This document shows, piece after piece, positions 4,601-59,678 of a DNA stretch of 64,000 nucleotides. The notes under the pieces were generated by a model, which saw only the letters and a list, made by a program, of their open reading frames with translations, was not told the DNA's origin and made no database searches. This DNA is from Phycisphaerales bacterium. Its GTDB lineage: Bacteria > Planctomycetota > Phycisphaerae > Phycisphaerales > JAGLTS01. Location: assembly GCA_023135165.1 (NCBI GenBank), contig JAGLTS010000060.1, positions 166 to 64,165 on the forward strand, given 5' to 3'. Numbering within the stretch: position 1 is the first letter of the stretch; each line of letters begins with the position of its first letter. The position numbers were made by a program, and so were the translations under genes.

Positions 4601-4629
4601 CAAGATGTGTCCGGGTGTCGGTCGCGGCT
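4590..4629. other. attL junction (CT core at 4599-4600, then P' arm CAAGATGTGTCC)
   Basis: 4601-4612 is the exact reverse complement of 58723-58734. Confidence 0.9.
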
Positions 4630-12747: not shown

Positions 12748-13013
12748 GGCAACCTCCAGATCACTACGGGAACATCTCACCTTTGTCCGCAACGAGGCCC
12801 CGTCTGTACCGGCCCCACATCACCCACCAGGGTGTGCACCTCCAGCCTACACGCGAATCACGCTGCGTCTAATAACATCTGCATTTTTTCGCGCTGTTTC
12901 TTGGGTATTACTGGACACACACCAATCACGATGGATACTGAACCGCGCAACGCGATGAATGCATTGCTGAACGATTCACCTCTTTGGTTCACGTATCTCT
13001 GGAGGTCCATGCC

Positions 13014-21876: not shown

Positions 21877-22277
21877 ATGCCGTAAGTCTCCAACTGATCC
21901 AGAAAAGCAACACATGCATCATGATCCAGCCCCAGAGTCGCAGCGGCAGCAAGTGGGGGTTCGTGTGCACTCAACTTCCTAAAGTATGCTGCCCCAGTGT
22001 GATTGAGCCTAAACACGGAGACTCCTGGGTGGTACGCAAGGGCGCCAAAGCTCTCGCGACGTATCACAAATGACTGTGCTGGAATCCTACTGCTCGGAGA
22101 TACTCTCTTGGGGTCGCTGGAAGGACCGTGCCATTGGCAATCGCACCAGGTAGGTCCAGTGTCCTGGTTCCAGTCATGTGACCAGTTTCGCCATTGATCA
22201 CCTCTGCTAGCCGGCGCGAATTCGGCAGTAAGTGATCTGACGAAGATGTCAATCGACGGGGAGGGATTTGCCGTCAT
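21864..22277 (-). CDS. Trp-rich peptide fused to a PqqD/MftB-like RiPP recognition element
   Basis: N-terminal WRNWSHDWNQDTGPTWCDCQW and C-terminal RRESFGALAYHP..FRLNHTGA..FLDQLETYGI. GAGGTG RBS. Overlaps the radical SAM start. Confidence 0.7.
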   Translation of the reverse strand: MTANPSPSIDIFVRSLTAEFAPASRGDQWRNWSHDWNQDTGPTWCDCQWHGPSSDPKRVSPSSRIPAQSFVIRRESFGALAYHPGVSVFRLNHTGAAYFRKLSAHEPPLAAAATLGLDHDACVAFLDQLETYGICID

Positions 22278-27390: not shown

Positions 27391-27509
27391 ATGGTCAAAC
27401 ACGATATCATGGGTTTGAGCGATTTCGTCGCTAATCAACTCGCTGGAGAGTGGGGTTCGGAGCGCTGGCTCCCTCTTCAGCCAATACGCACGGAGGCACC
27501 ACGCTGGCA

Positions 27510-35053: not shown

Positions 35054-37258
35054 TCATGAAGGAAGCCCCCCTTTGATGTCCTTGACACCCTCCCTTACTC
35101 GAGGTATGGAGAAATCACGCCAGTTCACCAACTCGGCATAGGCCGCACCTTGAAGTTCCACTCCCACTCCGTCAAGCCGCCGAGCGTCGAGAATCCTCTG
35201 CGCACTTCTCCATGCGGCAAACATAATATCAGCCGAGAACATCGACCTCCCGTATACGTGCGTGTACTGCGCCCCGCACGAACGTAACAGCGCGTGCCCG
35301 ACCTCCAGTTTGTCCTGGTCGAAAAGGGCATCCAAGAAGTGCCTTACATCCGCCATCCGCCTCGCGACGTCGCCCTCGTCGCTTAGCGAAAGCCCCACGT
35401 CACTGCTCGGGATCATCTCCTGGATATAGTCGATGTTCTGTGCCAGACTATCAGCACAAAACCGCCCAATGGCACTGATACATAATAGCGCGTTCATTTG
35501 CGGTTGTATTGGGGTTGCTACCACTCGTACGGTGTCACAGCAGATAAGCCGCCGGGCATCGGCCAACATATGGTTCAATGCGTGCACTATCGTGCGCTCG
35601 CGATAACCGAAACACGACAGCCATGATAGCAGCTCGCGCAGCTGGATCGGCTCTCTGCCCGCTTGTTTCAAATAATGCAATATCCTCAACTTACATGTGA
35701 GACTGCCAGCCTGAGCACAGGCGGTGCTGAACAAATTGTCAAAGATGCGCCGCTCGTTTGGACGAAAATGCTGGTGATTCTGCAACAGCATCGCTCGCAC
35801 CGCCGCGCGATGCGGCAGTGCTTCGGCCACCCCTTCATCGGGTGCCGGCAATAGATCGTATAGGGTGCCCTCAGCCAGAATCTGCCTTGGCTTGCGCCCT
35901 GCAATGCCCAGGGTCTTCTCAAGGCGCACAACGTTAGCCGGCCCACGGACCACCTTGTCGTATAGGAGCATACCAGTGCGCAAGCTGCCCCCCGCAACCC
36001 CGGCAAGAACGTCACGTGTCCGTCCCGGTTCAAAGAGCGTGTCTCTAGTTGCCGTGAGCCAACGACGTACGCATGACAATGGAATCGCCTTGTGTCCAAT
36101 TGCAAGAGCCGGCTCGTGAGTATCAGGCGCGGTGATGATCCGTCGTAGTCCACCATGCTTCTGGTCGTGTGATGAGAAGCAGCGATTAAGACGGGTAGAG
36201 AGTTCTGCATCCGTCAGGCCGAGGATGTGATTATTAAGGCGACTGCGCAAGAGATGTTCGAGCGACGGCCCGCAATGCTCGACATAGAAAAACACAGTAG
36301 TGCCCGCTCCGCCCTGAAGAGTAGCATAAGAAGAGGTGTACGTGAGCGGCCGCATGGCGATAATGACTTTACAGCGGGCGTTTGTGGTAATCCAGGTCGC
36401 TATGTCTAAGGCAGTCGTATGGAAAGCCCACGGAAGCGGATCGAGATTGTCAAATACAAAAACTACGGACCGAGAGTCGCCACTGTAATGATGAGATACG
36501 AAATAATCGAGACAGAGGATGTAGTACAACAGGCGATCCTCGACGAGCACAGCCGATAGAAATCGGCGTATTGTTGCAACTCGGACATCCAGGGGCACAG
36601 CAACAACGTCTGCGCTGGCATCGGGGGGCAGGTGGTCCCACACGCGCTGCATGATTGCTGCTGCCGGATGGGCACCAAGCTCGGGCCGAACAGAGTTTGC
36701 CCAGTCCCACATCCGTGTGGCCTGCGTGCGCAGCGGGAGTTTGTCCTCGTGAGTCACGAAGCGCGAAATTTCATCACAGAGGCGGCGTTGGAAACCGAGC
36801 GTATCAAGCGGCGCTGCGATCTGCCAGGTCTGTTCGTCGGGTGTGGGCGCCGGTGACGGCGATGGTGGCTGAGCAGCATGGAAATCTACGTACGCCACCT
36901 GGGCCCGCTGTTTCAGATACTGGTTGATCAGATAGCGAAGTGTCGTCGTCTTACCACAGCCGAGGGGGCCAACCAATGCAAGGAGACATGTATCGGGGTC
37001 ATCGAATGCGAATTGCAGGATCTCGCTCTCTGCGGGTCCTAGATCGGCGCGGGCTTCTCCTGACGCTTGGTACCTGGGGCACGCGTCTAACAGCGCGCAG
37101 CGTGTATGCAGGCGAGTGCTTTGGATGTAGTCGAAGTCAGAGATATCTTGGACGGCGGGGGGGGCGAACGACAGGATGTGTTGGACAAGATACGGGGCAA
37201 TCGCATCGTACACGGCGTTGTCGCAGACTGGCGTTTCGGAATCAGCTACTGCCGCCAT
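35054..37258 (-). CDS. P-loop NTPase (734 aa, STAND/KAP-like)
   Basis: Walker A GPLGCGKTT, Walker B VVFVFDNLD and IIAMRP. GAGGTG RBS. Confidence 0.8.
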   Translation of the reverse strand: MAAVADSETPVCDNAVYDAIAPYLVQHILSFAPPAVQDISDFDYIQSTRLHTRCALLDACPRYQASGEARADLGPAESEILQFAFDDPDTCLLALVGPLGCGKTTTLRYLINQYLKQRAQVAYVDFHAAQPPSPSPAPTPDEQTWQIAAPLDTLGFQRRLCDEISRFVTHEDKLPLRTQATRMWDWANSVRPELGAHPAAAIMQRVWDHLPPDASADVVAVPLDVRVATIRRFLSAVLVEDRLLYYILCLDYFVSHHYSGDSRSVVFVFDNLDPLPWAFHTTALDIATWITTNARCKVIIAMRPLTYTSSYATLQGGAGTTVFFYVEHCGPSLEHLLRSRLNNHILGLTDAELSTRLNRCFSSHDQKHGGLRRIITAPDTHEPALAIGHKAIPLSCVRRWLTATRDTLFEPGRTRDVLAGVAGGSLRTGMLLYDKVVRGPANVVRLEKTLGIAGRKPRQILAEGTLYDLLPAPDEGVAEALPHRAAVRAMLLQNHQHFRPNERRIFDNLFSTACAQAGSLTCKLRILHYLKQAGREPIQLRELLSWLSCFGYRERTIVHALNHMLADARRLICCDTVRVVATPIQPQMNALLCISAIGRFCADSLAQNIDYIQEMIPSSDVGLSLSDEGDVARRMADVRHFLDALFDQDKLEVGHALLRSCGAQYTHVYGRSMFSADIMFAAWRSAQRILDARRLDGVGVELQGAAYAELVNWRDFSIPRVREGVKDIKGGLPS

Positions 37259-39281: not shown

Positions 39282-39857
39282 ATGGATACTGAAAGTACTC
39301 TCTCATGGCTTGAAGGAAGCGAGGTCCGCCGCACGATTCTGAGTCAGCTCACGCAGCCGATGACAGCCCGGCAGCTGTGTCGCCGCACGGGCGTGCTCCT
39401 CGATCGGGGCTGCCGAGCACTGTGGGAGCTCGCCGTCTACATGCTGGTCTCCTGTCTGAACGTAAGCGCCCGTAGAGGAAGAGTGTACTGGTTGACAGAT
39501 GCCGGCACAGAGTGCCAGCGGATGCTGCGCGAGCACGGGGGCCTACGTCCGGTCGAGCACGTATTCCCCGAGGTTGACTGGCACCTCTACGGGTGGGTCT
39601 GCTTCAGGCATCGGACGACCATCATCAGAGCACTCGTGAGCCCCATGTATCCGGCCGAGATCAAGCGAAAAGCACTGTCACAGGATCCAGAGCTGCGCAT
39701 CAGCACCAACAATGTGCGTGATGTGATTCGACTGTTTCTGGCGAGGGGAATCGTCGCTCCTGTCCGGATTAGAGGAAGGACGCACCCACGCTACGAACTC
39801 ACCGATCTGGGATCGAAGCTGCAGATTCTCCTGAATCAGGCGGAGGTGCGACAATGA
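39282..39857 (+). CDS. Tandem winged-helix DNA-binding protein
   Basis: Two similar units, ending VYWLTDAG and RYELTDLG. Confidence 0.7.
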   Translation: MDTESTLSWLEGSEVRRTILSQLTQPMTARQLCRRTGVLLDRGCRALWELAVYMLVSCLNVSARRGRVYWLTDAGTECQRMLREHGGLRPVEHVFPEVDWHLYGWVCFRHRTTIIRALVSPMYPAEIKRKALSQDPELRISTNNVRDVIRLFLARGIVAPVRIRGRTHPRYELTDLGSKLQILLNQAEVRQ

Positions 39858-39984
39858 AACAGGAGCCTCAGCGCGGACCTCTTGACTGCCAGCAAGGGTC
39901 GCTACAGCACTTCTACTTATCACCAGACATCCCCTACCAGGGGATGCAGCGAGCACGAGGGCTTGCCGCCCGTCGTGGGGATCC

Positions 39985-40761
39985 ATGCTGACCGTCAACC
40001 GCATCCATCGAGGGGATGCGATCGAGGGCCTGAGCAAGCTGGAGGATGAATCCGTGGATCTCGTGGTGACGGACCCTCCCTACAACATCGCCGACTCGAA
40101 CAAGAAGACCATTCGCAATGGCGAGGTGATGACCACCAAGAAGGCCTGGGGAAGTTGGGACTCACGTCATCCCTTCGACCACGACCTCCTGATCATGAAG
40201 GTCATCAGCGAGTGCTACCGCGTGCTCAAGCCCGGTGGCGCCCTCTACATGTTCACAGCCCGCCAGGACAACGGCTTCTTCGTCCGCCACGCTCTCGCGA
40301 GGGGGTTCACCTACCGCACCCAGCTTGTCATGATCAAGACCCCTGCGCTTCCCAGCATCTACAAGAATGCCTGGAGGAGTGCATTCGAAGTCTGCATGTT
40401 CCTCACCAAGGGACGGCTTGGCACCTTCAACTTCCTCTCGCAGCAGCAGCTTGTCAACGTTTTCCACTACACGATCCGGCATCGGGCCACCTCACACCCG
40501 ACCGAGAAACCGCTCGTCTTCATTGAACGTCTGGTGCAGGTAAGCTCGAATCCTGGGGATCTGGTTCTCGATCCGTTCATGGGATCAGGGACAACCGCTG
40601 TAGCCTGCAAGCGATTCGGACGTCGATTTGTCGGCTTTGAGCTCAACCGGGACTATCTGAAGATGGCCAACCAGCGTCTCCGCCAAACTCCCGATCATCC
40701 AGAATCTGCAAAGGAGGGAGAGAGCGAGGACGATGGGCCTGAGGGATCGGGATCCACGTGA
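39985..40761 (+). CDS. DNA N4-C/N6-A methyltransferase, beta class
   Basis: TDPPY precedes HPTEKP and VLDPFMGSGTT. Confidence 0.93.
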   Translation: MLTVNRIHRGDAIEGLSKLEDESVDLVVTDPPYNIADSNKKTIRNGEVMTTKKAWGSWDSRHPFDHDLLIMKVISECYRVLKPGGALYMFTARQDNGFFVRHALARGFTYRTQLVMIKTPALPSIYKNAWRSAFEVCMFLTKGRLGTFNFLSQQQLVNVFHYTIRHRATSHPTEKPLVFIERLVQVSSNPGDLVLDPFMGSGTTAVACKRFGRRFVGFELNRDYLKMANQRLRQTPDHPESAKEGESEDDGPEGSGST

Positions 40762-41164
40762 CGGAGGCCACGGCGTCAGGTTCGCTGCGTCGCTGGAGGA
40801 GCGAGCCAGGAGGCTTCTCAGAGACCGACGCTTCAGCGACGTTGACGCTCCATTGCTACCCATCATTCGGCACGACATCCAGCTGACCCTGGATCATGTC
40901 AATGGCCTGAGAGGTCTGCAGCGGGAACAGCTGCGGAGCATTCTTCGCATCGAGTGTTACACAGATACAGAGCTCATGAACACCGATCCTAAGCCCTCAC
41001 AGTATTTCTTCACGCGGCGGCCGGATCGCGAGAAGCTCCGCGAGCGTCTGGCCAGGTTGGAGCAGGAACGTCGAAGGCTATCGCTGTCGATGGTGGAACG
41101 CATTCAGACGCTTCATGATCGCTTGCTGATCCTGCTCAATCGCCACGCTCAGTTGACTGGCTAG
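40733..41164 (+). CDS. Coiled-coil hypothetical protein
   Basis: Overlaps the MTase end and stops 1 nt before the ATPase start. Confidence 0.65.
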   Translation: MGLRDRDPRDGGHGVRFAASLEERARRLLRDRRFSDVDAPLLPIIRHDIQLTLDHVNGLRGLQREQLRSILRIECYTDTELMNTDPKPSQYFFTRRPDREKLRERLARLEQERRRLSLSMVERIQTLHDRLLILLNRHAQLTG

Positions 41165-41165
41165 G

Positions 41166-43163
41166 ATGGCTGATACGGCCAGGCTCCTGCGCCTGCTGGA
41201 GCCCCTGATGCCGCAGAAGGTTGCCAGATGGCGCGCGACCTGGGAGGTGGCGGATCCCGAGCTTCGCTCGCTCATCGAACGACACATCAGCTCAGTCGCA
41301 CGGCGCAGATTCGGCGATGTGGAAAAGAGCATCCTGCTTTCCTTGCCGCCGAAGTCGCTCTCTCGCGGGAAGTTCAACCTTGGCGATGTCGTCTACTGCA
41401 ATGTGAAGTGGCCCTTTGGCCTGTCGGCGGAGGAGCTCATGCAGAACGTCGCCATCTTTGGCCGGTCGGGCGCTGGAAAGACCAACGTCGCTTTCCATCT
41501 TCTCGAGCAGCTCACCGAGCGCCGCGTTCCCTGGCTCATGCTTGACTGGAAGAGGACGGGCAGGCACCTGATCCCCAGGATCTCTCGCCGTATCGATGTC
41601 TTTACGCCGGGAAGATCGCTTTCACCATTTCACTTCAACCCGTTCATCGCTCCACCGGGGCTGGAAGAGCGCGTCTACCTGCATCAGGTCGTGGATGTTC
41701 TCGGTGATGCCTTCACACTAGGCGATGGCTCTCGCAGCATCCTTCATCGCGTACTCAACACCTGCTACGAGCAGGGGAGACACGCCCCGACTGTTGCTGA
41801 TCTTCTCGAAGAGTTGGACAAGATCCCTGCCAAGCAGCGTGAGCACGGCTGGAAGATATCGGCTCGGCGCGCCCTTGAGAGCCTGAATCTCTCTGGCATT
41901 GTCTCGAAGGATGCTGCAGCCCAGGAGGAGTTTGCCGCCAGCTTGCTGAGCAGAAACACCGTGGTGGAGCTGGATGGCCTCTCTGACGGCGCCAAGAAGT
42001 TCCTCGTTCCCATACTCTGCCTCTGGCTGTACTCTGCAAGGCTAGGAGCTTCAGATCGTGAGCGACTCCGCTTTGTCATCCTGATCGAAGAGGCTCACCA
42101 CGTCCTCTACCGACAGGAGCGGCGGTCCAAAGAGTCGCTCATGAACAGCTTGATCCGGCAGTTCCGCGAACTGGGTGTTGGTACGGTGATTGTGGATCAG
42201 CATCCGCACCTCATCAGTTCGGCCGCAGTGGGCAACACCTACACCAGCATCTGTCTGAACCTGAAGGATCCGACTGACATCAACAAAGCTGCTGGACTGT
42301 CGCTGCTCGACGAGGATGAGAAGAGATGCCTGACCACATTGCCTGTGGGGCAGGCGATCGTGAAGCTCCAGGACCGGTGGAGGCGGCCATTCCTCGTGCA
42401 GATCCCCCACGTCGCCTTCAGTAAGGGCGCGATGACTGATCCGCGCCTACGTGCCCTCCTTAGGCGGTACAAGGCGCATTCTGACCGGAGACCGGCTCTG
42501 GGGCCGGAATTCCGGCGCGTTCGGCAGGGTCGGTTGGACGATCGAAGCTTAAGTGAGGAAGAAGTGTCGCTGATCGAGGATGCGCAGCAACACCCAGATG
42601 ATGGTGTTCGAGCCAGGTACGAACGCTTGGGCTTGAGTGCAGAGAAGGGCACGAGGTCGAAGGAGGACTTGCTGGACCTTGGCTGGCTGGAGTCGGAGAT
42701 GGTGCCATTGGGCAGGACGCGCCGGCTCATGCTCAGGCTGACGAAGCCAGCGCGTGAAGCGCTCGGGATCCCCTCCCGGGGGGTCTTCCGCGAGTCGATT
42801 GCACATGCTTACTGGAAGCGGTGGTATGCCCGCTGGTACCGGGAGCGAGGATACGCAGTCCAAGTTGAGGCCCCCCGAGTCGGGGGGAGGGTGGACGTTC
42901 TGGCTGAGAAGGACGGTGAGCGGATCGGCATCGAGATCGAGACAGGGAAGTCAGACGTGGTTGCCAACGTGCGGAACTGCCTAGCGGAAGGGTTTGACCG
43001 AGTCATCGTTGTTGTGACACGCGGAGATCGCACACTCCGCATTTCAGACGAGATTCGAGAACTCTCGTCCCCATCTGTTGCCAAGGTCCGGGTCATCCCG
43101 GCGGGCACGCATTGGACGCCTGGTCCTTATCCGTGCGCTGCTCGCGATAGCCACGGATGTTGA
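41166..43163 (+). CDS. HerA/FtsK/VirD4-like ATPase fused to a winged helix and a PD-(D/E)XK nuclease-like domain
   Basis: GRSGAGKT, LDWK, ILIEEAHH and RELG..IVDQHP; C-terminal GRVDVLAEKDGERIGIEIE. Confidence 0.82.
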   Translation: MADTARLLRLLEPLMPQKVARWRATWEVADPELRSLIERHISSVARRRFGDVEKSILLSLPPKSLSRGKFNLGDVVYCNVKWPFGLSAEELMQNVAIFGRSGAGKTNVAFHLLEQLTERRVPWLMLDWKRTGRHLIPRISRRIDVFTPGRSLSPFHFNPFIAPPGLEERVYLHQVVDVLGDAFTLGDGSRSILHRVLNTCYEQGRHAPTVADLLEELDKIPAKQREHGWKISARRALESLNLSGIVSKDAAAQEEFAASLLSRNTVVELDGLSDGAKKFLVPILCLWLYSARLGASDRERLRFVILIEEAHHVLYRQERRSKESLMNSLIRQFRELGVGTVIVDQHPHLISSAAVGNTYTSICLNLKDPTDINKAAGLSLLDEDEKRCLTTLPVGQAIVKLQDRWRRPFLVQIPHVAFSKGAMTDPRLRALLRRYKAHSDRRPALGPEFRRVRQGRLDDRSLSEEEVSLIEDAQQHPDDGVRARYERLGLSAEKGTRSKEDLLDLGWLESEMVPLGRTRRLMLRLTKPAREALGIPSRGVFRESIAHAYWKRWYARWYRERGYAVQVEAPRVGGRVDVLAEKDGERIGIEIETGKSDVVANVRNCLAEGFDRVIVVVTRGDRTLRISDEIRELSSPSVAKVRVIPAGTHWTPGPYPCAARDSHGC

Positions 43164-50473: not shown

Positions 50474-50973
50474 CGCTTGACCCCGTGGGAGCAGCTCATC
50501 TAAGGGGATTCCTGTCGAATATCGACCGCAACGGGGCGGACGCGCTGGCCAAGCTGCCATTCGAGCCAAGGGCCAGGTTTCACAGGCGCAAAGTCAGGGC
50601 TCGCTCCGGCGACTCCTGCCACTCGCTGCGGTATTGCTCCGTCGGTGATTCGGGTTCTAGGTAGCCGCCCGTGAGCATGAGGAAGTACGGCGTCGCCGTC
50701 TTGGTTGCCCAAGCAATGCCTACGAGACGGTTTTCTCCTTATAAGTGCTGCGACTTGGACGTCTTACGGATGAACAAAGAAAGGTACTTACCGGGGTAGC
50801 TCTGGGGGTATATCCCTCCGTCACGATGGGTCCGTCTTCAGGGGCCGAAGCCATGTCACCTGGAGGCAGAGAGGACCTCTTCGTTGACATCGTCGTCCCC
50901 AACTCGATCCAGCCACCTCAGCGCTGTCCGTCGCATGCAGGCTTCGGCAACCCAGCAGGAAGAGCAGTAGGCC

Positions 50974-51150
50974 ATGGCCTGGAAGCACGACATCATGCAG
51001 TTGTCCGCTGATGTGCTCCGTTTTGTCTCTCGGGGTGCGATGCTCATCGCCGTGATCGCTCTCTCTCTAGCTGGGACCTACGTGATCGTGAAGCTTGCCT
51101 TTTTCGCTGCGCGTTTTCTGGACCGAACACTCTTTGCAGAACCGTGGTGA
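50974..51150 (+). CDS. 58-aa membrane peptide
   Basis: MAWKHDIMQLSADVLRFVSRGAMLIAVIALSLAGTYVIVKLAFFAARFLDRTLFAEPW. Below the ORF-track cutoff; stops 2 nt before the next ATG. Confidence 0.6.
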   Translation: MAWKHDIMQLSADVLRFVSRGAMLIAVIALSLAGTYVIVKLAFFAARFLDRTLFAEPW

Positions 51151-51152
51151 CC

Positions 51153-51677
51153 ATGGATGCCTACGACGACAACCAGTTGGATTCGCAGCAGCGACCGCGT
51201 GTACTTCGGCGCGTCGTGCGGGTCACTGTCGCCGAGGATCCGGAGACCGGCCTGCCAATGGTTATCCCGGTGGAGCACGAGCGTCTCGCCTTCGCCACCG
51301 ATGGCGCTCTGGAAACCACTCTCGTTCACCATCAGCGATTCTACAAATGTGGCTGCGACACCAGGAACCCTCCGGGGAGCCGCTGCGTCGAGTGCGGCGG
51401 CGTCTCCTGCGCCCGCTGCCAGGAGCGCTTCGGCCGCTGCTGTCTCTGCCTCTCGCCGGTCTGCCCGGAGCACGCCAAGCTTCTCTCTCTCGGTGGCCAA
51501 CGACAACAGGTCGTCTGCCGACAGTGTCTTGATGCCATTCAGAGACGTCGGCGTTTGAAGGGGCTGGTTCGCACAGCCCTCTCGCCCTTCATCCGTTTCA
51601 CCCCCACGACCCCCACCTCCACGACCCCCAAGAGATCCGCCTCGAGTTTTCCTGGGAGTCAACGAGGTACGCCATGA
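51153..51677 (+). CDS. Multi-Cys zinc-finger protein
   Basis: CGC, CVEC, CARC, CCLC, CPEH and CRQC. Overlaps the ATPase start by ATGA. Confidence 0.75.
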   Translation: MDAYDDNQLDSQQRPRVLRRVVRVTVAEDPETGLPMVIPVEHERLAFATDGALETTLVHHQRFYKCGCDTRNPPGSRCVECGGVSCARCQERFGRCCLCLSPVCPEHAKLLSLGGQRQQVVCRQCLDAIQRRRRLKGLVRTALSPFIRFTPTTPTSTTPKRSASSFPGSQRGTP

Positions 51678-53488
51678 CTCCTCACCACATCGCTACAGGT
51701 AGCTTCACTCGCCGAGTCCGGTCAGCTGCCTCACAGCCCAGGGGATCCGGGCTTGGCGCTGGTGGACAGCGCGACCTGCTGAGTGATGTTGCCTACTGTC
51801 TGGAGCACGATCTGTGCCGCGACCGCTTTGGCCACCGCTGCCTGGAGCTCTACGGCTTAGGCAGCGCTGATTCACAGATCGCTGCCGAACTGCATCGCCG
51901 TGCCGCTCGACACCAGTACGAGGCGGCGCTTGGCATGGCTGGACCCTTCCGTGATCCGCATCTGCCAAGTCGCGAGTTGATTCTGAGCGCTCGAGACGGA
52001 GCGCCGAGCGCGGGCATCCCCTTGTCACTGCTCCTGGCCGGAACCCTTCTCATTGCCACGACCGGCGGAGGGAAGACGACGCTGATTGAATTCCTGCTGC
52101 TGCAGATCACCGCTTTCGTTGATTCCATCTGGATGACTGATCTCTACAAGAAGCGGCTGCGGCACCTGCGACCTTTCTTGGGTCGTGTGGGCAAGGACCT
52201 GGTGATACTCAACCATGAGACACTTCGTCTCAATCCCTTGCAGGCGGAGGGCTGCGACCCCCGCACGCACTTGACGCTTGTCGTCGATCTCCTGCAGCGC
52301 TCGCTCGATCTACCCCCACGAGCTGTGACGATCATCCGGCAAGCTTGTCTGGAACTCTACGATCGTTTCGGCGTGTTCCGGCAGGAGCGGCCGCTGTATC
52401 CAACGCTCTTTGATCTCTACGAGCATGTTCGGAGTGCACCCCGGCTGAACCCTGCGGCGAGAGAGGCGATCCTTGACAGGCTGGGAGCCCTTCTCACTTC
52501 GCTCTCGGCCGAGTGCCTGGCTTACAGGAGAGCGTGGTCGCCTCTTGACCTATCTCGTCGCATGATCGTCTTCGAGCTGCGCGGACTGAGTGAGCCCGCC
52601 AAGTCGCTGGTTCTCAGCCACTGCATCTTCAGCGTCTTCCATGCCGCCTTGGAACGGGGCCGACGGGCATCGGGCTTGGAGCAACTGATCGTTCTGGAAG
52701 ACGCTCAGCGAATCCTGGCTGGCAGAGCTTCGACCAGCGCCGATTTGCCTCCTCTTGAAGAGCTCGTGGGGGTTGTGCGTGAGTCGGGACGCGGTCTGCT
52801 CTTCAGCGCCCAGACCATGGCAGGCTTGCCGCGCGGCATCGCGGCCAACACCAACCTCAAGATCATGGGAGCACTTGGCCGGTCGGAGGATTACGCCGCC
52901 CTCGGTGGCGACATGGGGATGGATCGCGAGCAGATTGCCTGGGCTAAACAGAACTTGCGTCCTGGACGCTTCATCGGCCAAGTGGGTCTGGGCAACTGGC
53001 GGAGACCGTTCCTCCTGGAGATCCCGCCAGTCCATGTGCCGGCAACGGTGAGCGACGAAGATGCCAGAGACAGCGTGCAAGCCCTGGCGGATCTGGAACT
53101 GGTCCCTGCGACCGAGTTCATGAATTGGACGCCGTATGCGTCGGTCTCTGTCGACACCAACCAGTCGCCCGCGCCAGCCGCAAGCAACGGTGATGCGGAG
53201 GAGGGACCGGACACGGGCGGGAATGATGATCTGGAACTGGATGAGGCGGAGCTGCGATTCCTGCGCGCCGTTGTGGAGCATCCAGGCGAGCCCTCCAGCC
53301 ATTACGCCAAGTATGCCCATCTGAACACGAGCCGAGCCGCCGCTATCCGCAAGCGGCTGGTGGAGCGTGGTTACCTGCGCCTTCATTCGGTGGCGACCGG
53401 TCGGCGAGGTCGTAAGTCGCTCGTCGTTGAACCGCTTGAGCCCGCCCTCCGTGGAGTTGAGGCCAACGCAGACCAGGGAGGCAACTGA
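51674..53488 (+). CDS. HerA/FtsK/VirD4-like ATPase with a C-terminal winged helix
   Basis: ATTGGGKTT, LNPL, PTLFDL, IVLEDAQR and RESG..FSAQ. Confidence 0.8.
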   Translation: MTPHHIATGSFTRRVRSAASQPRGSGLGAGGQRDLLSDVAYCLEHDLCRDRFGHRCLELYGLGSADSQIAAELHRRAARHQYEAALGMAGPFRDPHLPSRELILSARDGAPSAGIPLSLLLAGTLLIATTGGGKTTLIEFLLLQITAFVDSIWMTDLYKKRLRHLRPFLGRVGKDLVILNHETLRLNPLQAEGCDPRTHLTLVVDLLQRSLDLPPRAVTIIRQACLELYDRFGVFRQERPLYPTLFDLYEHVRSAPRLNPAAREAILDRLGALLTSLSAECLAYRRAWSPLDLSRRMIVFELRGLSEPAKSLVLSHCIFSVFHAALERGRRASGLEQLIVLEDAQRILAGRASTSADLPPLEELVGVVRESGRGLLFSAQTMAGLPRGIAANTNLKIMGALGRSEDYAALGGDMGMDREQIAWAKQNLRPGRFIGQVGLGNWRRPFLLEIPPVHVPATVSDEDARDSVQALADLELVPATEFMNWTPYASVSVDTNQSPAPAASNGDAEEGPDTGGNDDLELDEAELRFLRAVVEHPGEPSSHYAKYAHLNTSRAAAIRKRLVERGYLRLHSVATGRRGRKSLVVEPLEPALRGVEANADQGGN

Positions 53489-54006
53489 TGCGGGGAGGCT
53501 TCCTGCACAACACGGTCCTGATTACACCAATCGAGCAGTTCTTCTGCGAGCTTGCCGCTTGTGTCTCGAGGGAACATCCGATTCGCCCGGGTCGAGGTGC
53601 GCCTGCGGTTGACCTCTTCATTGAACTTCAGCACGAGCGGATCGTGGTGGAAGCGGAGCTCACGGCAAGGCGAATCACCGTCGCCTTGAAGAAGGCCCAG
53701 ACCCTCGAAGCGACCCATCTTCTCATCATCACCCCCACGAGCAGGACCGCTGAGAGGGCGAGGTACTTGCTGGTCGAAGCGGATCCCAAATGGTTGCCAA
53801 AGCGTCTTTGGATTCTGCCGCTGGGGCCTGCATTGCAAGCACTTCGGGATTGTTATCTGCATCCACCAGTCGCGAACTACACAACCCCAACCCCCACGAC
53901 CCCCACCTCCACGACCCTCACGAGTTCCACGAGTCCCACCCTCGCGAGTCCTCAAGTAGCCGCAGCGGATCTCTTCACCGGCAAGCAGAGGAGGACTCGG
54001 CAATGA
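53488..54006 (+). CDS. PD-(D/E)XK nuclease-like protein
   Basis: H..REHP..AVDLFIE..RIVVEAE; parallels the C-terminus of the 41166 ATPase. TGATG coupling. Confidence 0.6.
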   Translation: MRGGFLHNTVLITPIEQFFCELAACVSREHPIRPGRGAPAVDLFIELQHERIVVEAELTARRITVALKKAQTLEATHLLIITPTSRTAERARYLLVEADPKWLPKRLWILPLGPALQALRDCYLHPPVANYTTPTPTTPTSTTLTSSTSPTLASPQVAAADLFTGKQRRTRQ

Positions 54007-54269
54007 TCATCCGCTGGCGGCGCATCCTGGGACTGCTGATCTTCGCAGCGATCGTGACGATCGTGGTGAGGAAGTGGGATCGGCTCGGCCTTGCCTTCGG
54101 ATCGATCACGCTCACCGAACTGGGATACCGCTACGGACGTGGAGGTCTGCCCGATCAGCTGACGCTGCTGGTGTGGGCACTCGTGCTCGTTCTCGTGGGG
54201 GTGCTCATTGGGAAGGCCGCCTGGGGTGGTCACGCGACGCGCCAAGGTCGCCGGGGGACTTCGAAGTGA
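54003..54269 (+). CDS. Small two-TM membrane protein
   Basis: MIIRWRRILGLLIFAAIVTIVV and LLVWALVLVLVGVLI. ATGA overlap and GAGGA RBS. Confidence 0.7.
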   Translation: MIIRWRRILGLLIFAAIVTIVVRKWDRLGLAFGSITLTELGYRYGRGGLPDQLTLLVWALVLVLVGVLIGKAAWGGHATRQGRRGTSK

Positions 54270-54317
54270 TTCTCGTGGGGGTTGTGTCGGTTTGGATTCA
54301 TGTCAAGGAGATTCATC

Positions 54318-54572
54318 ATGAGACGAGTATTTGTGAACGGACAAGAAGTGACTGTGCCTGTGGACTACGACGGTTGCATTGACGCGGACGAACTGCGTGA
54401 ACTCGCAGGCATCGAGCGCAGCAGGCCGTTGCTGCTCAAACGGCTGGATGGCGGTAACGAGGTCATCAATCCTGGCGAGACGGTATCGGTGCGTCCGGGC
54501 CAGCACTTCCAGGACATGCCGCTGCACAAGCGAGGGGTCGGCCATGAGACCATTGCCGCATCTGCTGCATGA
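54318..54572 (+). CDS. Ubiquitin-like (beta-grasp) protein with a C-terminal extension
   Basis: VFVNGQEV..DELRELAGI..LLL..V.PGE.V.V..G.HF..HKRG plus 11 further residues. AAGGAG RBS. Adjacent to E2 and JAB-E1 genes. Confidence 0.75.
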   Translation: MRRVFVNGQEVTVPVDYDGCIDADELRELAGIERSRPLLLKRLDGGNEVINPGETVSVRPGQHFQDMPLHKRGVGHETIAASAA

Positions 54573-54927
54573 CCTGGAGGCGCTCAGTCTGGGCTATCGC
54601 TTGTCTGTCGCTCGCGATTACCGTTCGGTGATCGCCCACGGCTTCAAGCTGCCGCCTGGATACGGCAGGTCAACCGTTGATGTGCTTTTTGAGGTGCCCC
54701 GTCGCTATCCGCGTCGGCCCCCAGGTGTGGCTTCGAGGGTGTACCTGCCACCTGACCTGCGCTTCCACGGTCGCACGCTCAAAGACGTGCACCCGGGAGT
54801 TACGCCAGGCTGGGGCAACTGGGCCTGGCTCTGTTACGAGTGGATTCGTTGGGATCCTCGGACAGATGACCTGATCAAGTTCCTGGAGATGGTCCGGGCG
54901 GATCTGACGAATCCATCCACGAAGTGA
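54544..54927 (+). CDS. Prokaryotic E2/UBC-fold protein
   Basis: FKLPPGY..VDVLFEVP..YP..PP and WAWLC..WDP..DDL.KFL. Contains a single Cys. Confidence 0.78.
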   Translation: MRPLPHLLHDLEALSLGYRLSVARDYRSVIAHGFKLPPGYGRSTVDVLFEVPRRYPRRPPGVASRVYLPPDLRFHGRTLKDVHPGVTPGWGNWAWLCYEWIRWDPRTDDLIKFLEMVRADLTNPSTK

Positions 54928-54946
54928 CTCAAGGAGGATACTTACG

Positions 54947-56767
54947 ATGAAAGAGCATTCAGAAGAGCAGTGTTCAGCACTGAAAGACCAGGTGATCGTG
55001 CGGATCGGCAAGTGCCACAGCGACATCCTGACGGAGCATCTGCGGCGGGATCCCCACACGGAGCAGTTCGCGTTCCTGCTGGCGAGCCGGGTAGAGGGTC
55101 CCGAACTGACGATTCTCATCGTCCGAGATGTGCTTCTGCCCGGCCCAGGTGACCTCAGCGAGCAGAGCGCGGGGGGCGTGGCTCCAACGCCTGCCTTCCA
55201 ACGTCTTGTGTACACCATGGCCGAGGCCGTGGGGCTCAACATCATTGATGTGCACACGCACCTCCATCCGGGACGACCTCGCTTCAGCAGCATTGATACG
55301 ACGGTTGCTGCCGCCAACGGCCGTTACATCGGCGAGCACTTTGAGGATGATCGGATAACCCACGTCATGATCGTCTTCGGCAACGACGTGCGGTTCCACG
55401 ATGCGGTGATCTTCGACCGATCCACAGGCAAGCGCTGCAAATGTGAGATTGATCATGGAGGAGGGAGCGACGAACTGATCTGCGGATCGAGTCATGCCCG
55501 AGCTGCTCGCCGCTGCACGGGGGTTCGGTGTCGCGGGCAGGCTCGGCAGGAGCGCAGATGCACTCGCAGGGCTCGTGGGGCTCGTGAAGGTCGTGGGGGT
55601 CGTGGAGGTGGGGGTCGGTACCGCACGATTGATCGGATCGAGATCCTGGGCCGGGGGATGGAGTTGCGGGAGACGAAGGCACGGAGAGAAGCTGTGGGCA
55701 AGAAGGGAGAGCTGTCGGAGCGATTCGCTCGGCAGAGGCTCGTTCCCGGCTGGGAGCAGGAGTGCCTTGCGAAGCAACGGATCGTGATCGTGGGTGCGGG
55801 CGGTAACGGGGCACCGCTTTACCAGACGCTGCTCTCGCTTGGCGCAGGATCGGAGGGGTGGCTGGCAGTTGTTGATCCGGATGTGATCGAAGCCTCCAAC
55901 TTGCCCCGGATCCCCTACGCAACGACCGATGTCGTCGCAGAGACGGGGGCCGCATCGGCGCAGGATCTTGCGGGACTCGTGGGAGTGGGGGGTGTGGGGG
56001 TCGTGGGTGTCGTGGGGGTGGGGAAGGTGGAGATGGCGGCGCGATACGCCCGAGTGCGTGCCCCTGGGACACGAGTGCTGACATATGCAGTCGAAGCAGC
56101 GGATGAGGCGGTGCTGGCGCGGATCAAGGAAGCGACGCTGCTGATTGGAGCCGCCGACAACGATGGGGTGAGGGAGCTCTTGAACGAGTGCTCGGTTCGC
56201 TATCTCATCCCGTACATTGATCTGGGCTGTGACATCCAGGTTGATGATGCAGGTTGGATCGTTGGTGGCCAGGTGCGTGTAGTCATCCCCGGTGAGACGG
56301 CTTGCCTGCTTTGCTGTGATGGGTATGACCCAGCGCAGGCAGCACTGGACACGATGGATCCGAAGAGACGGGCCGAGCATGCTTCGATCGGGTATGTGCG
56401 TGGGTCTGATGCTCAGGCCCCTACTCCCTCGATCGCCAACCTCAATGCGATGACCGCCCAGCTCGGCGTCGCGGCTGTGCTGTCGCTGGTGCACGGCCCT
56501 GAGTTCGGTGCCTGGGATTACGTCCACTTCGATCCGGTGAAGGGGGAGATGGTCTCGGCGAGCAGCAAGCCCCGGCCGGATTGCCCGCTGTGCGGTGCTC
56601 ATGGTCTTCTTGGCGCTGGGGACTGTGGCGACGAATCGGAGGAGGCTAACGCCGCCGCCGCAGATGACATAGCCGATGGAACTGCGATGGCGCCATGGCC
56701 GGTTGGATCGTCGCTGTCTCATGAGGCAGCGGGAGCTACCGAGGAACAAGAGCATGACGAGTGCTGA
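54947..56767 (+). CDS. JAB peptidase-ThiF/E1 fusion
   Basis: JAB: E.FAFL, DVHTH, FSSID. E1: RFARQ, VGAGGNG, DPD.IEASNLPR, GKV, AADN..R, CLLC, CPLC. Confidence 0.87.
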   Translation: MKEHSEEQCSALKDQVIVRIGKCHSDILTEHLRRDPHTEQFAFLLASRVEGPELTILIVRDVLLPGPGDLSEQSAGGVAPTPAFQRLVYTMAEAVGLNIIDVHTHLHPGRPRFSSIDTTVAAANGRYIGEHFEDDRITHVMIVFGNDVRFHDAVIFDRSTGKRCKCEIDHGGGSDELICGSSHARAARRCTGVRCRGQARQERRCTRRARGAREGRGGRGGGGRYRTIDRIEILGRGMELRETKARREAVGKKGELSERFARQRLVPGWEQECLAKQRIVIVGAGGNGAPLYQTLLSLGAGSEGWLAVVDPDVIEASNLPRIPYATTDVVAETGAASAQDLAGLVGVGGVGVVGVVGVGKVEMAARYARVRAPGTRVLTYAVEAADEAVLARIKEATLLIGAADNDGVRELLNECSVRYLIPYIDLGCDIQVDDAGWIVGGQVRVVIPGETACLLCCDGYDPAQAALDTMDPKRRAEHASIGYVRGSDAQAPTPSIANLNAMTAQLGVAAVLSLVHGPEFGAWDYVHFDPVKGEMVSASSKPRPDCPLCGAHGLLGAGDCGDESEEANAAAADDIADGTAMAPWPVGSSLSHEAAGATEEQEHDEC

Positions 56768-57047
56768 GCCCAACTCGAGCCGGTTTGCCGAGGAGTTGCT
56801 CGAACAAGCCGAAGCGATCGAACGAGCCGAGCATGAGATCCGTCAGGAGGTGCTGCGCTTGGCCCGTCAGGGCGATGTTGAGGACATCGAGCGCCTGGTG
56901 TTGCGTTGGTGCGAGGGACCGGTTGAGAAGGTACTCGCCCAGCCTGAGAGAAGCCCGTCCAAGTGCCAGAGGAGGGCTACACGCCGCAAGGACGCGGCTG
57001 GACGGCCCCCACGGCCCCCACGGCCCCCAGGTGCCCCCACGGCTTGA
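56754..57047 (+). CDS. Small helical hypothetical protein upstream of the recombinase
   Basis: Overlaps the E1 end. Acidic helices with a repeat-derived Pro/Arg tail. Confidence 0.55.
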   Translation: MTSAEPNSSRFAEELLEQAEAIERAEHEIRQEVLRLARQGDVEDIERLVLRWCEGPVEKVLAQPERSPSKCQRRATRRKDAAGRPPRPPRPPGAPTA

Positions 57048-57178
57048 AGGTGGCCCACGGAGCCCCCTTCCGGCGGCTTGTAGGCGTTCGTCGGGTAGGT
57101 CCTTGACTTCCTGGGCGAACTAAGCGTCTTGGTAGCCAAACGGCCCTCACGAATTGGGCTGAAACCGGAGCGATCGAG

Positions 57179-58741
57179 ATGCGCGTTGTGGCGATGTTCA
57201 GGGTGTCTACCGAGCAGCAGGCAGAGCAGGGAGCCTCGCTCGACGCCCAGGAACGCCACTACCGACAGCTTGCCCAGCGGGAGAGATGGGAGACGGTCGC
57301 CACCTTCCGCGGCTGCGAGTCCGCCACTCAGGCTGCGAAGGAGAGGGACGTTCTGCAGCAGGTGTTGGCCTGCATTCGGGCCGAAAAGCCGGACGCAGTC
57401 TACATCCATGAGCAGTCGCGCCTGACGCGTGGGGATGAGCTGGACGCCGCTCTGCTCTTCCGCGAGTTACGGGAGCAACGAACCAAGGTCATCATAGGCG
57501 GTGTGGTACGAGACCTAGAGAGCATCGATGAACGCTTTATGCTCGGCATTCAGAGCTTGGTCGATCGGACTGAGTCGGAGCGGATCCGCGAGCGCATGGA
57601 CCGGGGCAAGCGCGAGAAGGCCAGACAGGGAAGACGAGGAAGCGGCTTTGCCCCCTATGGCTACCACAATCCACTTCGCGGTGATCCGGAACACGGCAAG
57701 CTGAAGATGGTGTTGGAGGAGGTAGCAGTCGTTCGACGCATCTTCGAGCTTGCTGCCAAAGGGCTGAGCACCCTGAGCATCGCTCGGACTCTGAATGCTG
57801 AGAGCGTCCGCGCTCCTCGCGGAGGTACTTGGGGAAAGACGACGATCAGGCGAATCCTCGACAATCCGAGCTACCTCGGGGTGCTGGCCAGCTTTGCCTG
57901 GAAGCCGATGAGGAAAGGAAGCCGCTGCTACAAGCTGGACCTGGGGAGCACGGACGCCATCATCGTCCCCGATGCACACGAAGCCATCATCGATCGCGAG
58001 CTCTGGGACGCGGTCCACGCCCTGCCCAAGGTTAGGCAAACGAAGCGGGCCTACATGCTGACAGGGCTACTCCACGTCGACGGCCGCCGTCTGGCCTGCG
58101 ACTCGTCACGTGGTCGGTCCTTCTACCGGAGCCGTGATGGGCGGGGTCCTGGTCCCTGGCTTCCTGCCAAGGAAACTGAGGATGCCATCTGGAAGGCATT
58201 CGTCTCCTTGACAACTGGTCCTGAGTTCGTGGCGAGCATGATCAAGACGGCGCAGCGGCGACAGCCGCTCCAGGAGTTGAACGAGCAGATCCGCAGGCAG
58301 GAGAAACAGGTCCCTCGTTTGCGAAGGCGCCTGGACCGCCTCATCGACATGCGAGCCGACGGCGAGATCTCCAAGGACGTGTTCCAGCACAAGAGCCGTG
58401 AGGCGGAGGAAGCGCTGAAGAGCGCCGAGGAAATACTCCGTGAGCTCCGACGACGGATTGCTTCCACCGATAGCTCACAGGCGGAACGCGTGGTCAAGGC
58501 AATCAGGCTCCTGATCGGTGATCCTCGCAGACTCAGCGTCAAGGAAAAGAAGAACCTACTTCACGCCATGGTGAACCGCATCGACATCCAAGCGGAGCGG
58601 GTCATCCGCACGCAATCTCGCAACTCAAAGGGCAGCTTCGGACCGGGACCGCATGCCAAGTGGATCGTCAGAGACATCACCTTCGAGCTCCAACTGCCCG
58701 GCGATGACCGTAGCCGAGGAGTGGACACATCTTGCTCATGA
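57179..58741 (+). CDS. Large serine recombinase (integrase)
   Basis: RVSTEQQ..SLDAQ, SRLTR, APYGY, IARTLN, ILDNPSYLG, HEAII..W and a coiled coil. The stop codon is supplied by comM sequence across attR. Confidence 0.93.
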   Translation: MRVVAMFRVSTEQQAEQGASLDAQERHYRQLAQRERWETVATFRGCESATQAAKERDVLQQVLACIRAEKPDAVYIHEQSRLTRGDELDAALLFRELREQRTKVIIGGVVRDLESIDERFMLGIQSLVDRTESERIRERMDRGKREKARQGRRGSGFAPYGYHNPLRGDPEHGKLKMVLEEVAVVRRIFELAAKGLSTLSIARTLNAESVRAPRGGTWGKTTIRRILDNPSYLGVLASFAWKPMRKGSRCYKLDLGSTDAIIVPDAHEAIIDRELWDAVHALPKVRQTKRAYMLTGLLHVDGRRLACDSSRGRSFYRSRDGRGPGPWLPAKETEDAIWKAFVSLTTGPEFVASMIKTAQRRQPLQELNEQIRRQEKQVPRLRRRLDRLIDMRADGEISKDVFQHKSREAEEALKSAEEILRELRRRIASTDSSQAERVVKAIRLLIGDPRRLSVKEKKNLLHAMVNRIDIQAERVIRTQSRNSKGSFGPGPHAKWIVRDITFELQLPGDDRSRGVDTSCS

Positions 58742-58746
58742 TCGGC
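58706..58746. other. attR junction (P arm GGACACATCTTG, CT core at 58735-58736)
   Basis: Reverse complement of the attL arm; comM resumes at CTC ATG ATC GGC. Confidence 0.9.
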
Positions 58747-59595
58747 CCGGCGGGGACGGGCAAGACGATGCTCGCCAAGGCGCTGCCCGGCATCCTGCCT
58801 CCCATGACGCGACACGAAGCGATCGACGTCACACGCATCTGGTCAACCGTCGGCCTCATCAGCGACGGCGAGTCGATCGTTCGACGCAGACCCGTCCGTG
58901 CGCCGCACCACACCGCATCGGCCGTCGCCATCGTCGGCGGCGGGTCGATTCCCAGGCCCGGTGAGGTGAGCCTGGCGCACCACGGCGTCCTGTTCCTCGA
59001 CGAGTTGCCCGAGTTCGGCAGGGGCGTCCTTGAAACGCTTCGTCAGCCGCTCGAAGACCGCACCGTCACCGTGGCGCGTGCGCATTCGACCGCACGCTTC
59101 CCCGCCGGCTTCATGCTTGTCGCGGCGATGAACCCCACCGCGCGCGGCGACCTGCCCAGCCCGAACGATACAGCTGGCCTGCGCGAGATGGAGCGGTACC
59201 TGGGCAAGCTGAGCGGACCGTTGCTGGATCGCATCGACATTCACATCGAAGTCCCGCGCGTCCCGTTCGCAACACTGCGACGCCGGGCAGGCGGCGCGAC
59301 GACCGCCGAGCTGCGCGAGCGCGTCCTCGCTGCACGCCGGGCGCAACGAGAGCGTCAGGGCGAGCAGCCCAACGCATTCCTCACAGGCAAGCAACTCAAC
59401 ACGCTCGCAGCGTTTGACGGTGAGGCGGAGCGTCTGCTCGGTCAAGCGATGACGGAGATGCGCCTTTCAGCACGCGCCTACGACAAGATCCGCCGAATCG
59501 CACGCACGATCGCCGACCTTGGCGGCGAGGAGGCGATCGGCATGTCGCATGTCGCCGAGGCAGTGCAGTACCGTCTGCTGGACCGGCAGTTCTGA
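58735..59595 (+). pseudogene. comM: comM 3' part (AAA+ domain)
   Basis: MIGPAGTGKT, RAPHHTAS, PGEVSLAHHGVLFLDELPEF, LRQPLE, SGPLLDRID and ARTIADL. Confidence 0.93.
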
Positions 59596-59678
59596 ACAGC
59601 GGTGCGCCGCGCAATCTGTTGTTTTTGAGTCAACATCAAAGCCCAGGAAAAGCCCCTCCTGGACTTGTGTCATCGGGC

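Follow-up and report, generated by a model that had tools for sequence, protein, structure and literature searches.

What is a ubiquitin-like conjugation set doing in one gene run with a DNA-handling ATPase, a nuclease and an integrase? The question is raised by ten genes at positions 50974–58741 of a 64 000 nt stretch of DNA from an uncultured Phycisphaerales bacterium (hereafter the window), where they form the right end of a 54 kb island inserted in comM, the att sites of which we mapped. The conjugation set comprises a ubiquitin-like protein (Ubl), an E2 and a fusion of a JAB peptidase to an E1 (JAB-E1), together referred to as the trio; upstream of it lie five genes that we call the core, and downstream a small helical protein and a large serine recombinase. 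All ten open reading frames (ORFs) are on the + strand, and a first-pass annotation of the sequence had rightly described them as closely packed: the intergenic distances are, in order, +2, −4, −1, −4, +48, −29, +19, −14 and +131 nt, i.e. between −29 and +48 nt up to the 131 nt that precede the recombinase. A scan for promoters and terminators found no signal above that of shuffled sequence. The annotation had also taken the ten genes for a single gene set, which did not survive comparison: they are two units, core and trio, and not one system, as the trio was absent from all 26 independently found cores, 19 of which carry other cassettes. Our reading of this arrangement, to which we give a little less than an even chance, is that the trio is a Type I Bub-related cassette that modifies the predicted DNA-transfer complex of its own element by means of a predicted relay from a tyrosine to a cysteine.

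Linkage of the trio to an ATPase–nuclease core

From the side of the trio, linkage was assessed in 24 loci (the window, 21 from a GTDB scan and two from genome searches), five of which end less than 1.5 kb upstream and are uninformative. At 18 of the remaining 19 a gene of the ATPase/nuclease family stands within about 6 kb; it is directly upstream and co-directional at 15, inverted at one, 5.5 kb away at one and downstream at one. The exception, L016, is flanked upstream by an integrase and downstream by a TrwC relaxase and a helicase, and a mobile-element context was found at all 19 informative loci. An integrase is present in the fetched flank of 18 of the 24, mostly of the tyrosine type and following YggT-like and Xis-like helix-turn-helix genes, and ArdC genes are close to the trio in four loci. 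The first-pass annotation had proposed that the coupling is not accidental, and had named trios that usually lack the ATPase as the finding that would speak against it; with one such locus in 19 its proposal stands. Chance is also disfavoured because, in a sample of 401 genomes of the class, the E1 family occurs in four and the ATPase family in 30; in the source genome the ATPase family is found twice, both copies being inside this island. The broad ATPase profile used here was partly built from trio loci, and independent support comes from profile A2, which at E ≤ 1 × 10−3 detects nine trio loci in addition to that of the window, and from Pfam DUF87/FtsK matches. No relative of JAB-E1, E2 or the ATPase was found on viral contigs, so that a search of this sensitivity gives no hint of a prophage module; on plasmids, the sole E2 match was a canonical BubAB–BubCD–BubE operon, which served as a control. 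The cultured bacterium Bythopirellula polymerisocia Pla144 (L029) has the same arrangement, with a split ATPase gene. A trio with the ATPase–nuclease was also observed on a contig of a Methanosarcinales metagenome-assembled genome (L028, 4787–9963), reflecting either transfer to archaea or misbinning.

From the side of the ATPase, 14 metagenome and 28 class-search regions were collected and, after removal of nine belonging to a paralogue clade (described below) and seven that end too soon, 26 informative cores were left. None of these holds the trio. Nine carry a GrpE–DnaK–vWA cassette (seven in the slot that follows TM2, the last core gene, and two before TM1, the first), five carry cassettes of the kinase/PP2C/vWA type, five carry E1-containing cassettes unrelated to the trio (three in the slot and two upstream) and seven have no recognized cassette. 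A co-directional protein-handling cassette is thus found inside or just before the core operon in 19 of the 26, and what the cassettes have in common is action on proteins, whether through tagging, phosphorylation or chaperoning. On the ATPase tree, which has 55 rows and was computed by a quick method with support from the Shimodaira–Hasegawa-like approximate likelihood ratio test only and several long branches, the Ubl label changes eight times, six of these changes being forced by strong branches. In the clade of the window's ATPase, slots with Ubl, DnaK or kinase occur alongside empty ones, and the three trios present there occupy three places on the E1 tree. Because the ATPase and E1 trees disagree, we consider the trio to be an exchangeable cassette within one class of element.

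The GrpE–DnaK–vWA cassette, in which no DnaJ was recognized, was seen at L031, L085, L087, L089, L090, L091, L092, L098 and L114; a literature search of partial coverage gave no description of it in this element context. Furthermore, at least three additional E1/E2/JAB cassettes unrelated to the trio stand beside this ATPase family (L040, 12353–17073; L041, 10843–15629; L110, 270–2314; L111, 7753–10203; L029, 11001–14041). That of L110 includes a eukaryote-like Ubl–E2 fusion, and in that of L029 a JAB-E1 is followed by a Clp-like AAA protein.

The trio and its relationship to Type I Bub

The Ubl gene (54318–54572, + strand) encodes a predicted single β-grasp protein that matches Multi_ubiq (PF14452) above the cut-off (25.8 versus 24.5 bits). 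As the first-pass annotation had recognized, its C-terminal glycine is masked: Gly73 (codon 54534–54536), in the motif K-R-G, is followed by a tail of 11 aa, and all 17 of the Ubls aligned have the R72-G73 pair. Across the family the invariant RG is either bare, short-tailed or fused to the E2. A search of the PDB with the Ubl profile gave no β-grasp match, so that Pfam, the genomic context and the invariant RG are the basis of the assignment. Ubl and E2 are fused in six of the 20 loci that carry both genes, and are separate, overlapping genes in the window. A frameshifted BubAB was considered as an origin for the latter, and is ruled out by the separate genes of the other 14 loci.

The E2 gene (54544–54927, + strand) is assigned to the Prok-E2_E/BubB family: it scores just under the cut-off for Prok-E2_E (PF14462; 23.9 versus 25 bits), and the best PDB match of its profile is BubB (3 × 10−7). 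Absent from the earlier annotation was the substitution of cysteine for serine at its presumed active site. Cys97 (54832–54834) is invariant in 20 of 20 aligned sequences and falls, by HMMER, at the position of the catalytic Ser333 of BubB, and HHalign comparison with four canonical Bub E2s (97.7 %) confirmed the register and revealed the absence of both helper residues, His and Asp. The site reads Cys97-Tyr-Glu, versus W-S-R-H in the four control Bub E2s, and the Asp motif of BubB is replaced by PPG. A library of 1.84 billion proteins yielded 395 E2 representatives, and since the best 150 of these 395 comprise 121 with Cys, 10 with Ser, eight with another residue and 11 fragments, the Cys-type Prok-E2_E proteins make up a sizeable clade. 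More distant Cys-type Prok-E2_E proteins (P0205–P0300; L105, 8856–9437) were observed to form a broad clade.

The JAB-E1 gene (54947–56767, + strand) is BubCD-like and matches Pfam ThiF. Our search recovered 131 such proteins among 7999 scored candidates, 120 of which are listed, mostly 470–530 aa in length. Profile A1, built from 66 JAB-E1s, has as its best PDB match the full-length Citrobacter BubCD (9ea4, positions 16–420, 1.7 × 10−28), and a Gly-Tyr of the family is in register with BubCD Y370, corresponding to Tyr483 of the window (56393–56395), the predicted crossover residue. Among the 120 matches listed, 118 have this Tyr and all have the first CxxC together with the Arg, Lys and Asp of adenylation; the E1 loop has no conserved Cys besides the Zn ligands, a Cys beside the CxxC being found in 59. 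The JAB motif (E39, H103, H105, S114, D117) does not vary among the 66 homologues aligned. The E1 family has two CxxC Zn pairs, and on the E1 tree forms a branch apart from four canonical BubCDs. BubE was absent from the source genome (0 of 1, 92 % complete) and from five other trio genomes (0 of 5, 69–99 % complete), and had no match in the 23 other trio loci, whilst four control Bub loci were positive, three of which had been used to build the profile.

By homology, then, the trio is a Bub-related set, as the first-pass annotation had supposed. It shares with Type I Bub (6E.1; BubAB–BubCD–BubE) the order Ubl–E2–JAB/E1, a JAB-E1 fusion matching both BubCD domains, a crossover Tyr without a catalytic Cys in the E1, a Prok-E2_E-type E2, a masked C-terminal Gly, a mobile-element location and, in the six relatives mentioned above though not in the window, a Ubl–E2 fusion. 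It differs in its E2, which has a Cys without a following His and PPG in place of the Asp motif; in that no BubE (DUF6527) was found; in its E1, which forms a separate clade with two CxxC pairs; and in its fixed position in an ATPase/nuclease operon. Ye et al. (bioRxiv, 10.1101/2024.11.21.623953) take as hallmarks of Bub the esters formed on Tyr and Ser and the presence of BubE in every operon. For this reason the trio falls outside Bub and, as far as can be judged from sequence, is likely a sister clade to Type I Bub that works in a similar manner. Class 6e of Iyer et al. (2006; PMC1779556) combines an E2-like domain lacking Cys with a metal-binding partner, in operons that ride mobile elements; Ubl diversity is covered by Gong et al.

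Other conjugation systems are further removed. Type I/II Bil (BilABCD; Chambers et al., PMC10557695) is alike in having a Ubl, a Cys-type E2, a JAB peptidase and an E1 without an E3, but its E1, of the IAD–AAD–CYS type with a catalytic Cys, and its JAB are encoded by separate genes, whereas in the window JAB is fused to a minimal E1 with a single adenylation domain and a Tyr. The Cap2 E2–E1 fusion with a cyclase of Type II CBASS/Pycsar was not found: the window's E2 is separate, and the module proteins gave partial ThiF-region matches to E1–E2 models only and no cyclase match. The PRTRC (ParB-related, ThiF-related) cassette likewise ties a Ubl/E1/E2/JAB set to mobile elements, yet the match to PRTRC_ThiF was weak and generic (20 bits versus a cut-off of 145) and no other PRTRC model matched any of the ten proteins. 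A literature search of partial coverage found neither a Cys-type, BubE-less Prok-E2_E operon nor the present element backbone described.

The copy in the window carries two in-frame, low-complexity insertions in JAB-E1 that were likewise missing from the earlier annotation, one of 62 aa (residues 163–224, about 55433–55618) and one of 26 aa (residues 329–354, about 55931–56008). The latter sits in the ATP-binding loop of the E1, where the spacing is 35 aa versus 9 aa in 92 relatives. An assembly artefact is an unlikely source, as an independently assembled contig is identical over 50500–59600, though it probably derives from the same reads; it comes from the one run found to contain this DNA, a cold-seep metagenome that may be its source, and no RNA run was listed as containing it. 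Tandem repeats with a 9 bp period are found at 51598–51640, 53876–53950, 55555–55625, 55970–56025 and 57000–57045, and these five, all within one 6.3 kb stretch in the ten-gene operon, are the only hits of the 54 kb island; two of them make up the insertions in JAB-E1. Repeats of this family were observed to be dispersed in the genome (93 hits versus 2–4 in shuffles), often beside a GC-rich hairpin, and to insert in frame into coding genes.

The core resembles a minimal mobilization module

The core opens with TM1 (50974–51150, + strand), a 58 aa peptide with one transmembrane (TM) segment by hydropathy, which is kept ahead of the Zn finger gene in related elements. The Zn finger protein itself (51153–51677, + strand) has a β-hairpin region, a binuclear Zn finger and a C-terminal helix (alignments A6 and A8), and carries a 9 bp-period repeat in its tail. 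For its model (pLDDT 87.5) the ten top VIA rows were all of the FYVE/Rab-effector type, at middling Z scores of 4.1–5.1; Foldseek gave no match at E ≤ 0.001, and the Atlas matches under 0.9 only. The suggestion of the first-pass annotation that this finger is an E3-like adaptor is weakened, because the finger accompanies the core with or without a Ubl cassette and its model is closer to FYVE-type than to RING fingers. It is found across ATPase clades irrespective of whether the slot holds DnaK, a kinase or nothing, and did not co-occur specifically with E1/E2 genes, as a RING E3 of the tri-ligase kind would. As such, it is more likely an adaptor of the core than a trio-specific E3.

The third core gene (51674–53488, + strand) encodes a HerA/VirD4/CedD-like ATPase with a C-terminal winged helix-turn-helix (wHTH), recognized by its Walker motifs, Atlas clusters and 30 homologues, several of which are fused to the nuclease. 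Walker A (residues 129–136) and Walker B (338–345) are intact. There was no Pfam hit; in the Atlas the protein falls with DUF87/HerA clusters (0.98) and also with TrwB_AAD and CedB clusters, and its nearest annotated families are the DNA-transfer ATPases CedD, CedB, VirB4 and TrwB. It is followed by a PD-(D/E)XK nuclease (53488–54006, + strand) with H7, D42, E55-x-E57 and K69 (alignments A5 and A7), the H, D, ExE and K being conserved across alignments, and with a weak match to Cas4 (E-value 0.009). TM2 (54003–54269, + strand), an 88 aa protein with two TM segments by hydropathy, forms the left border of the cassette slot, and most relatives have a small two-TM gene in this place. The core is usually followed by Xis and integrase genes and is widespread in Planctomycetota.

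In many relatives the wHTH and the following nuclease are one polypeptide, as they are in a paralogous ATPase–wHTH–PD-(D/E)XK fusion elsewhere in the island (41166–43163, + strand; Pfam DUF87; NCBIfam CedD at 1 × 10−21, below cut-off). A model of the C-terminal 230 aa of the paralogue (pLDDT 82) bears out both folds, in that the wHTH matches a MarR-type wHTH (Z 9.6, rmsd 2.2, 75 residues aligned) and the nuclease the restriction-endonuclease fold of AF1548 (Z 8.5, rmsd 3.2, 98 aligned); nuclease fold matches include Can2/Cdn1 effectors. No Zn finger or TM genes accompany the paralogue, which belongs to a clade of its own on the ATPase tree (13 rows, support 100). This second ATPase–wHTH–nuclease clade was seen to share islands (window, 39282–43163; L086, L089, L101 and L113). 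In the window the paralogue is preceded by a double-wHTH-like gene and a DNA methylase, and L086 and L101 have a further E1 cassette 3–6 kb upstream of the fusion, with a Ubl-like gene in L086.

The architecture of the core recalls that of MOB_C relaxases, in which a wHTH is followed by a PD-(D/E)XK domain (PMC12857230; PMC3357382). The same pairing beside a coupling-type ATPase is found here by fold, by the D..ExE..K residues and by the affinities of the ATPase. As described in those sources, MOB_C and coupling modules (pAD1 TraX, CloDF13 MobC/MobB and the operon of phage 0305phi8-36) agree with the core in setting a wHTH–PD-(D/E)XK protein by a VirD4/HerA-like ATPase with small membrane proteins. 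The core differs in that its wHTH, and often its nuclease, is fused to the ATPase, in the addition of a FYVE-like Zn finger, and in that Replic_Relax matches only in trace and no oriT was found. From this architecture we infer that the core is a minimal mobilization module, in which a coupling-type ATPase is joined to a MOB_C-like wHTH–nuclease.

Possible function of the trio

Gene order, homology, conserved residues, att sites and slot exchange are read directly from the sequences compared; the relay that we propose on top of these is modelled on Bub biochemistry. The JAB domain would trim the 11 aa tail of the Ubl, exposing Gly73, which the E1 would adenylate and then hold, with the Ubl, as an ester of Tyr483. 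The E2 would take over the Ubl as a Cys97 thioester and transfer it, with no E3, to a lysine; acylation of a thiol by an aryl ester would follow general chemistry. BubE being absent, the JAB domain may also remove the Ubl from its targets. Such reversible tagging would gate the assembly or activity of the core complex, a job that would be done in sister elements by the kinase/PP2C/vWA or GrpE/DnaK/vWA cassettes.

That the trio would modify the island's own predicted transfer machine is suggested by related islands, which fill the slot with kinase/phosphatase or Hsp70 cassettes. We favour it because of this shared protein-handling theme and because Kaur et al. (2020; PMC7159879) read the alternatives of Hsp70 with GrpE or kinase with PP2C and vWA around GAP1-N2 GTPases as regulating complex assembly. 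The GAP1-N2 systems outlined there are alike in having a membrane-near NTPase core with mutually exclusive accessory themes, and differ in that the window's core is a HerA-like ATPase–nuclease beside Xis/Int, with Ubl conjugation as a further theme. The target is the least secure step of this proposal, and several observations weigh against it. The core complex is a putative target, and no cassette appears to be essential, since seven of the 26 cores have none that was recognized. Trios are exchanged across ATPase clades independently of the ATPase phylogeny, so that a target outside the core would fit equally well. No oriT-like motif shared upstream of TM1 rose above background in 21 loci, no mating-pair genes were identified, and the match to the relaxase family Replic_Relax is a trace (one of 15 members, E-value 0.21). 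Moreover, the window's E1 may be impaired by its ATP-loop insertion, and Ye et al. (10.1101/2024.11.21.623953) associate canonical Bub operons with regulators of defence.

The main rival is that the slot is a defence hotspot beside an integrase, with the trio tagging phage or competitor proteins and merely co-transcribed with the core, which we judge possible yet on balance unlikely. Integrase-adjacent hotspots occur in P4-like satellites, one of the alternative cassettes resembles the anti-phage system TerY-P (vWA–PP2C–kinase), and the cassettes swap freely across ATPase clades; Bil, moreover, tags phage proteins (Chambers et al., PMC10557695). Nevertheless, the 19 filled slots hold only co-directional protein-handling cassettes and not mixed systems, and all 19 informative trio loci are in a mobile-element context. 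A PADLOC run returned weak generic matches only, and Ye et al. (10.1101/2024.11.21.623953) report no Bub operon that protected Escherichia coli from phage. General defence-type cargo (Sir2, caspase, STAND-like) is located elsewhere in the island, away from the ten genes. The first-pass annotation had offered either a new defence system or control of the element; of these, the link to the biology of the element is borne out, and defence we keep as a rival.

Closest to that earlier view of defence, and improbable in our estimation, is the idea that the core is itself a membrane-anchored HerA–nuclease conflict system, the nuclease of which is subject to threshold regulation by the Ubl, kinase and Hsp70 cassettes. 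Both ATPase and paralogue do show weak matches to defence HerA models (mad8, 9 × 10−10; HerA, 1 × 10−7), the Can2/Cdn1 effectors noted above are among the nuclease fold matches, and GAP1-N2 conflict GTPases have cassettes on the same themes around them (PMC7159879). Set against this, the core is nearly always beside Xis–Int, with its gene order kept across the phylum as backbone genes would be, and its nearest annotated families are the DNA-transfer ATPases already named. Less probable still is that the family is functional and this copy decaying, its operon invaded by host 9 bp repeats and its E1 no longer working. The confinement of all five island repeat hits to the operon and the 62 and 26 aa insertions in JAB-E1 would fit such decay, as would the failure to find the attP junction of an excised circle among the contigs of three runs, although contigs drop such rare forms. 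However, every frame is open, every tested catalytic residue is kept, both insertions are in frame and the att arms are still perfect repeats.

If the trio does tag the element's own complex, a bacterial ubiquitination pathway would regulate horizontal gene transfer and not attack phage, using a chemistry that is a hybrid of Bub and canonical cascades. The predicted mixed relay (Tyr ester on the E1, Cys thioester on the E2) goes beyond the cysteine-free catalysis of the Bub paper, whose authors found neither phage protection nor a target. The core proteins of the same operon provide a short list of candidate substrates, and sister elements with a kinase, Hsp70 or no cassette are natural comparisons. 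It is conceivable, if rather doubtful, that Planctomycetota have an undescribed class of integrative elements with a minimal transfer machine (coupling ATPase fused to a relaxase-like nuclease, FYVE-like adaptor and small membrane proteins) controlled by a plug-in post-translational module, in which Ubl relay, phosphorylation and Hsp70 are interchangeable. The core also outlines a common element backbone in this phylum, given its ATPase in 30 of the 401 sampled class genomes.

The island, its att sites and other cargo

The island splits comM, the 5′ part of which begins at 3942 and the 3′ part of which ends at 59595, both halves matching Mg_chelatase (Pfam). attL (4599–4612, + strand) consists of a 2 bp crossover core (4599–4600) and a 12 bp element arm (4601–4612), and attR (58723–58736, + strand) of a 12 bp arm (58723–58734) and the 2 bp core, after which the 3′ part of comM follows. 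The arms form a perfect 12 bp inverted repeat around the 2 bp core, and a simulated crossover at this core restores a single open ComM frame of 505 aa. A split comM, inverted-repeat att arms and a 2 bp core are features of a serine-integrase island, and the large serine recombinase (57179–58741, + strand; Pfam Resolvase and Recombinase) is the last of the ten genes. Its stop codon lies outside attR, beyond the end of the element, and the excised circle would therefore encode 546 aa instead of the 520 aa of the integrated form; this change of C-terminus on excision is a possible directionality switch. The first-pass annotation had counted the recombinase as part of the system, but its type is incidental, most relatives having a tyrosine integrase instead, in many cases at a tRNA gene. 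Between JAB-E1 and the recombinase, a 97 aa helical protein (56754–57047, + strand) occupies the place of the YggT-like and Xis genes of relatives; it had no Pfam or NCBIfam match, only a self-hit in tblastn and no homologue among the fetched loci.

Additional cargo of the island includes an Rhs protein (6379–12792), a caspase (15030), a tyrosine integrase (16821), a radical SAM protein (20911–21915) and a STAND-like NTPase (35054–37258). Finally, a Sir2-like gene is followed by a 482 aa ORF without a Pfam match (27450–30712), a pair that we take, by eye, to resemble Sir2-APAZ/short Argonaute systems.

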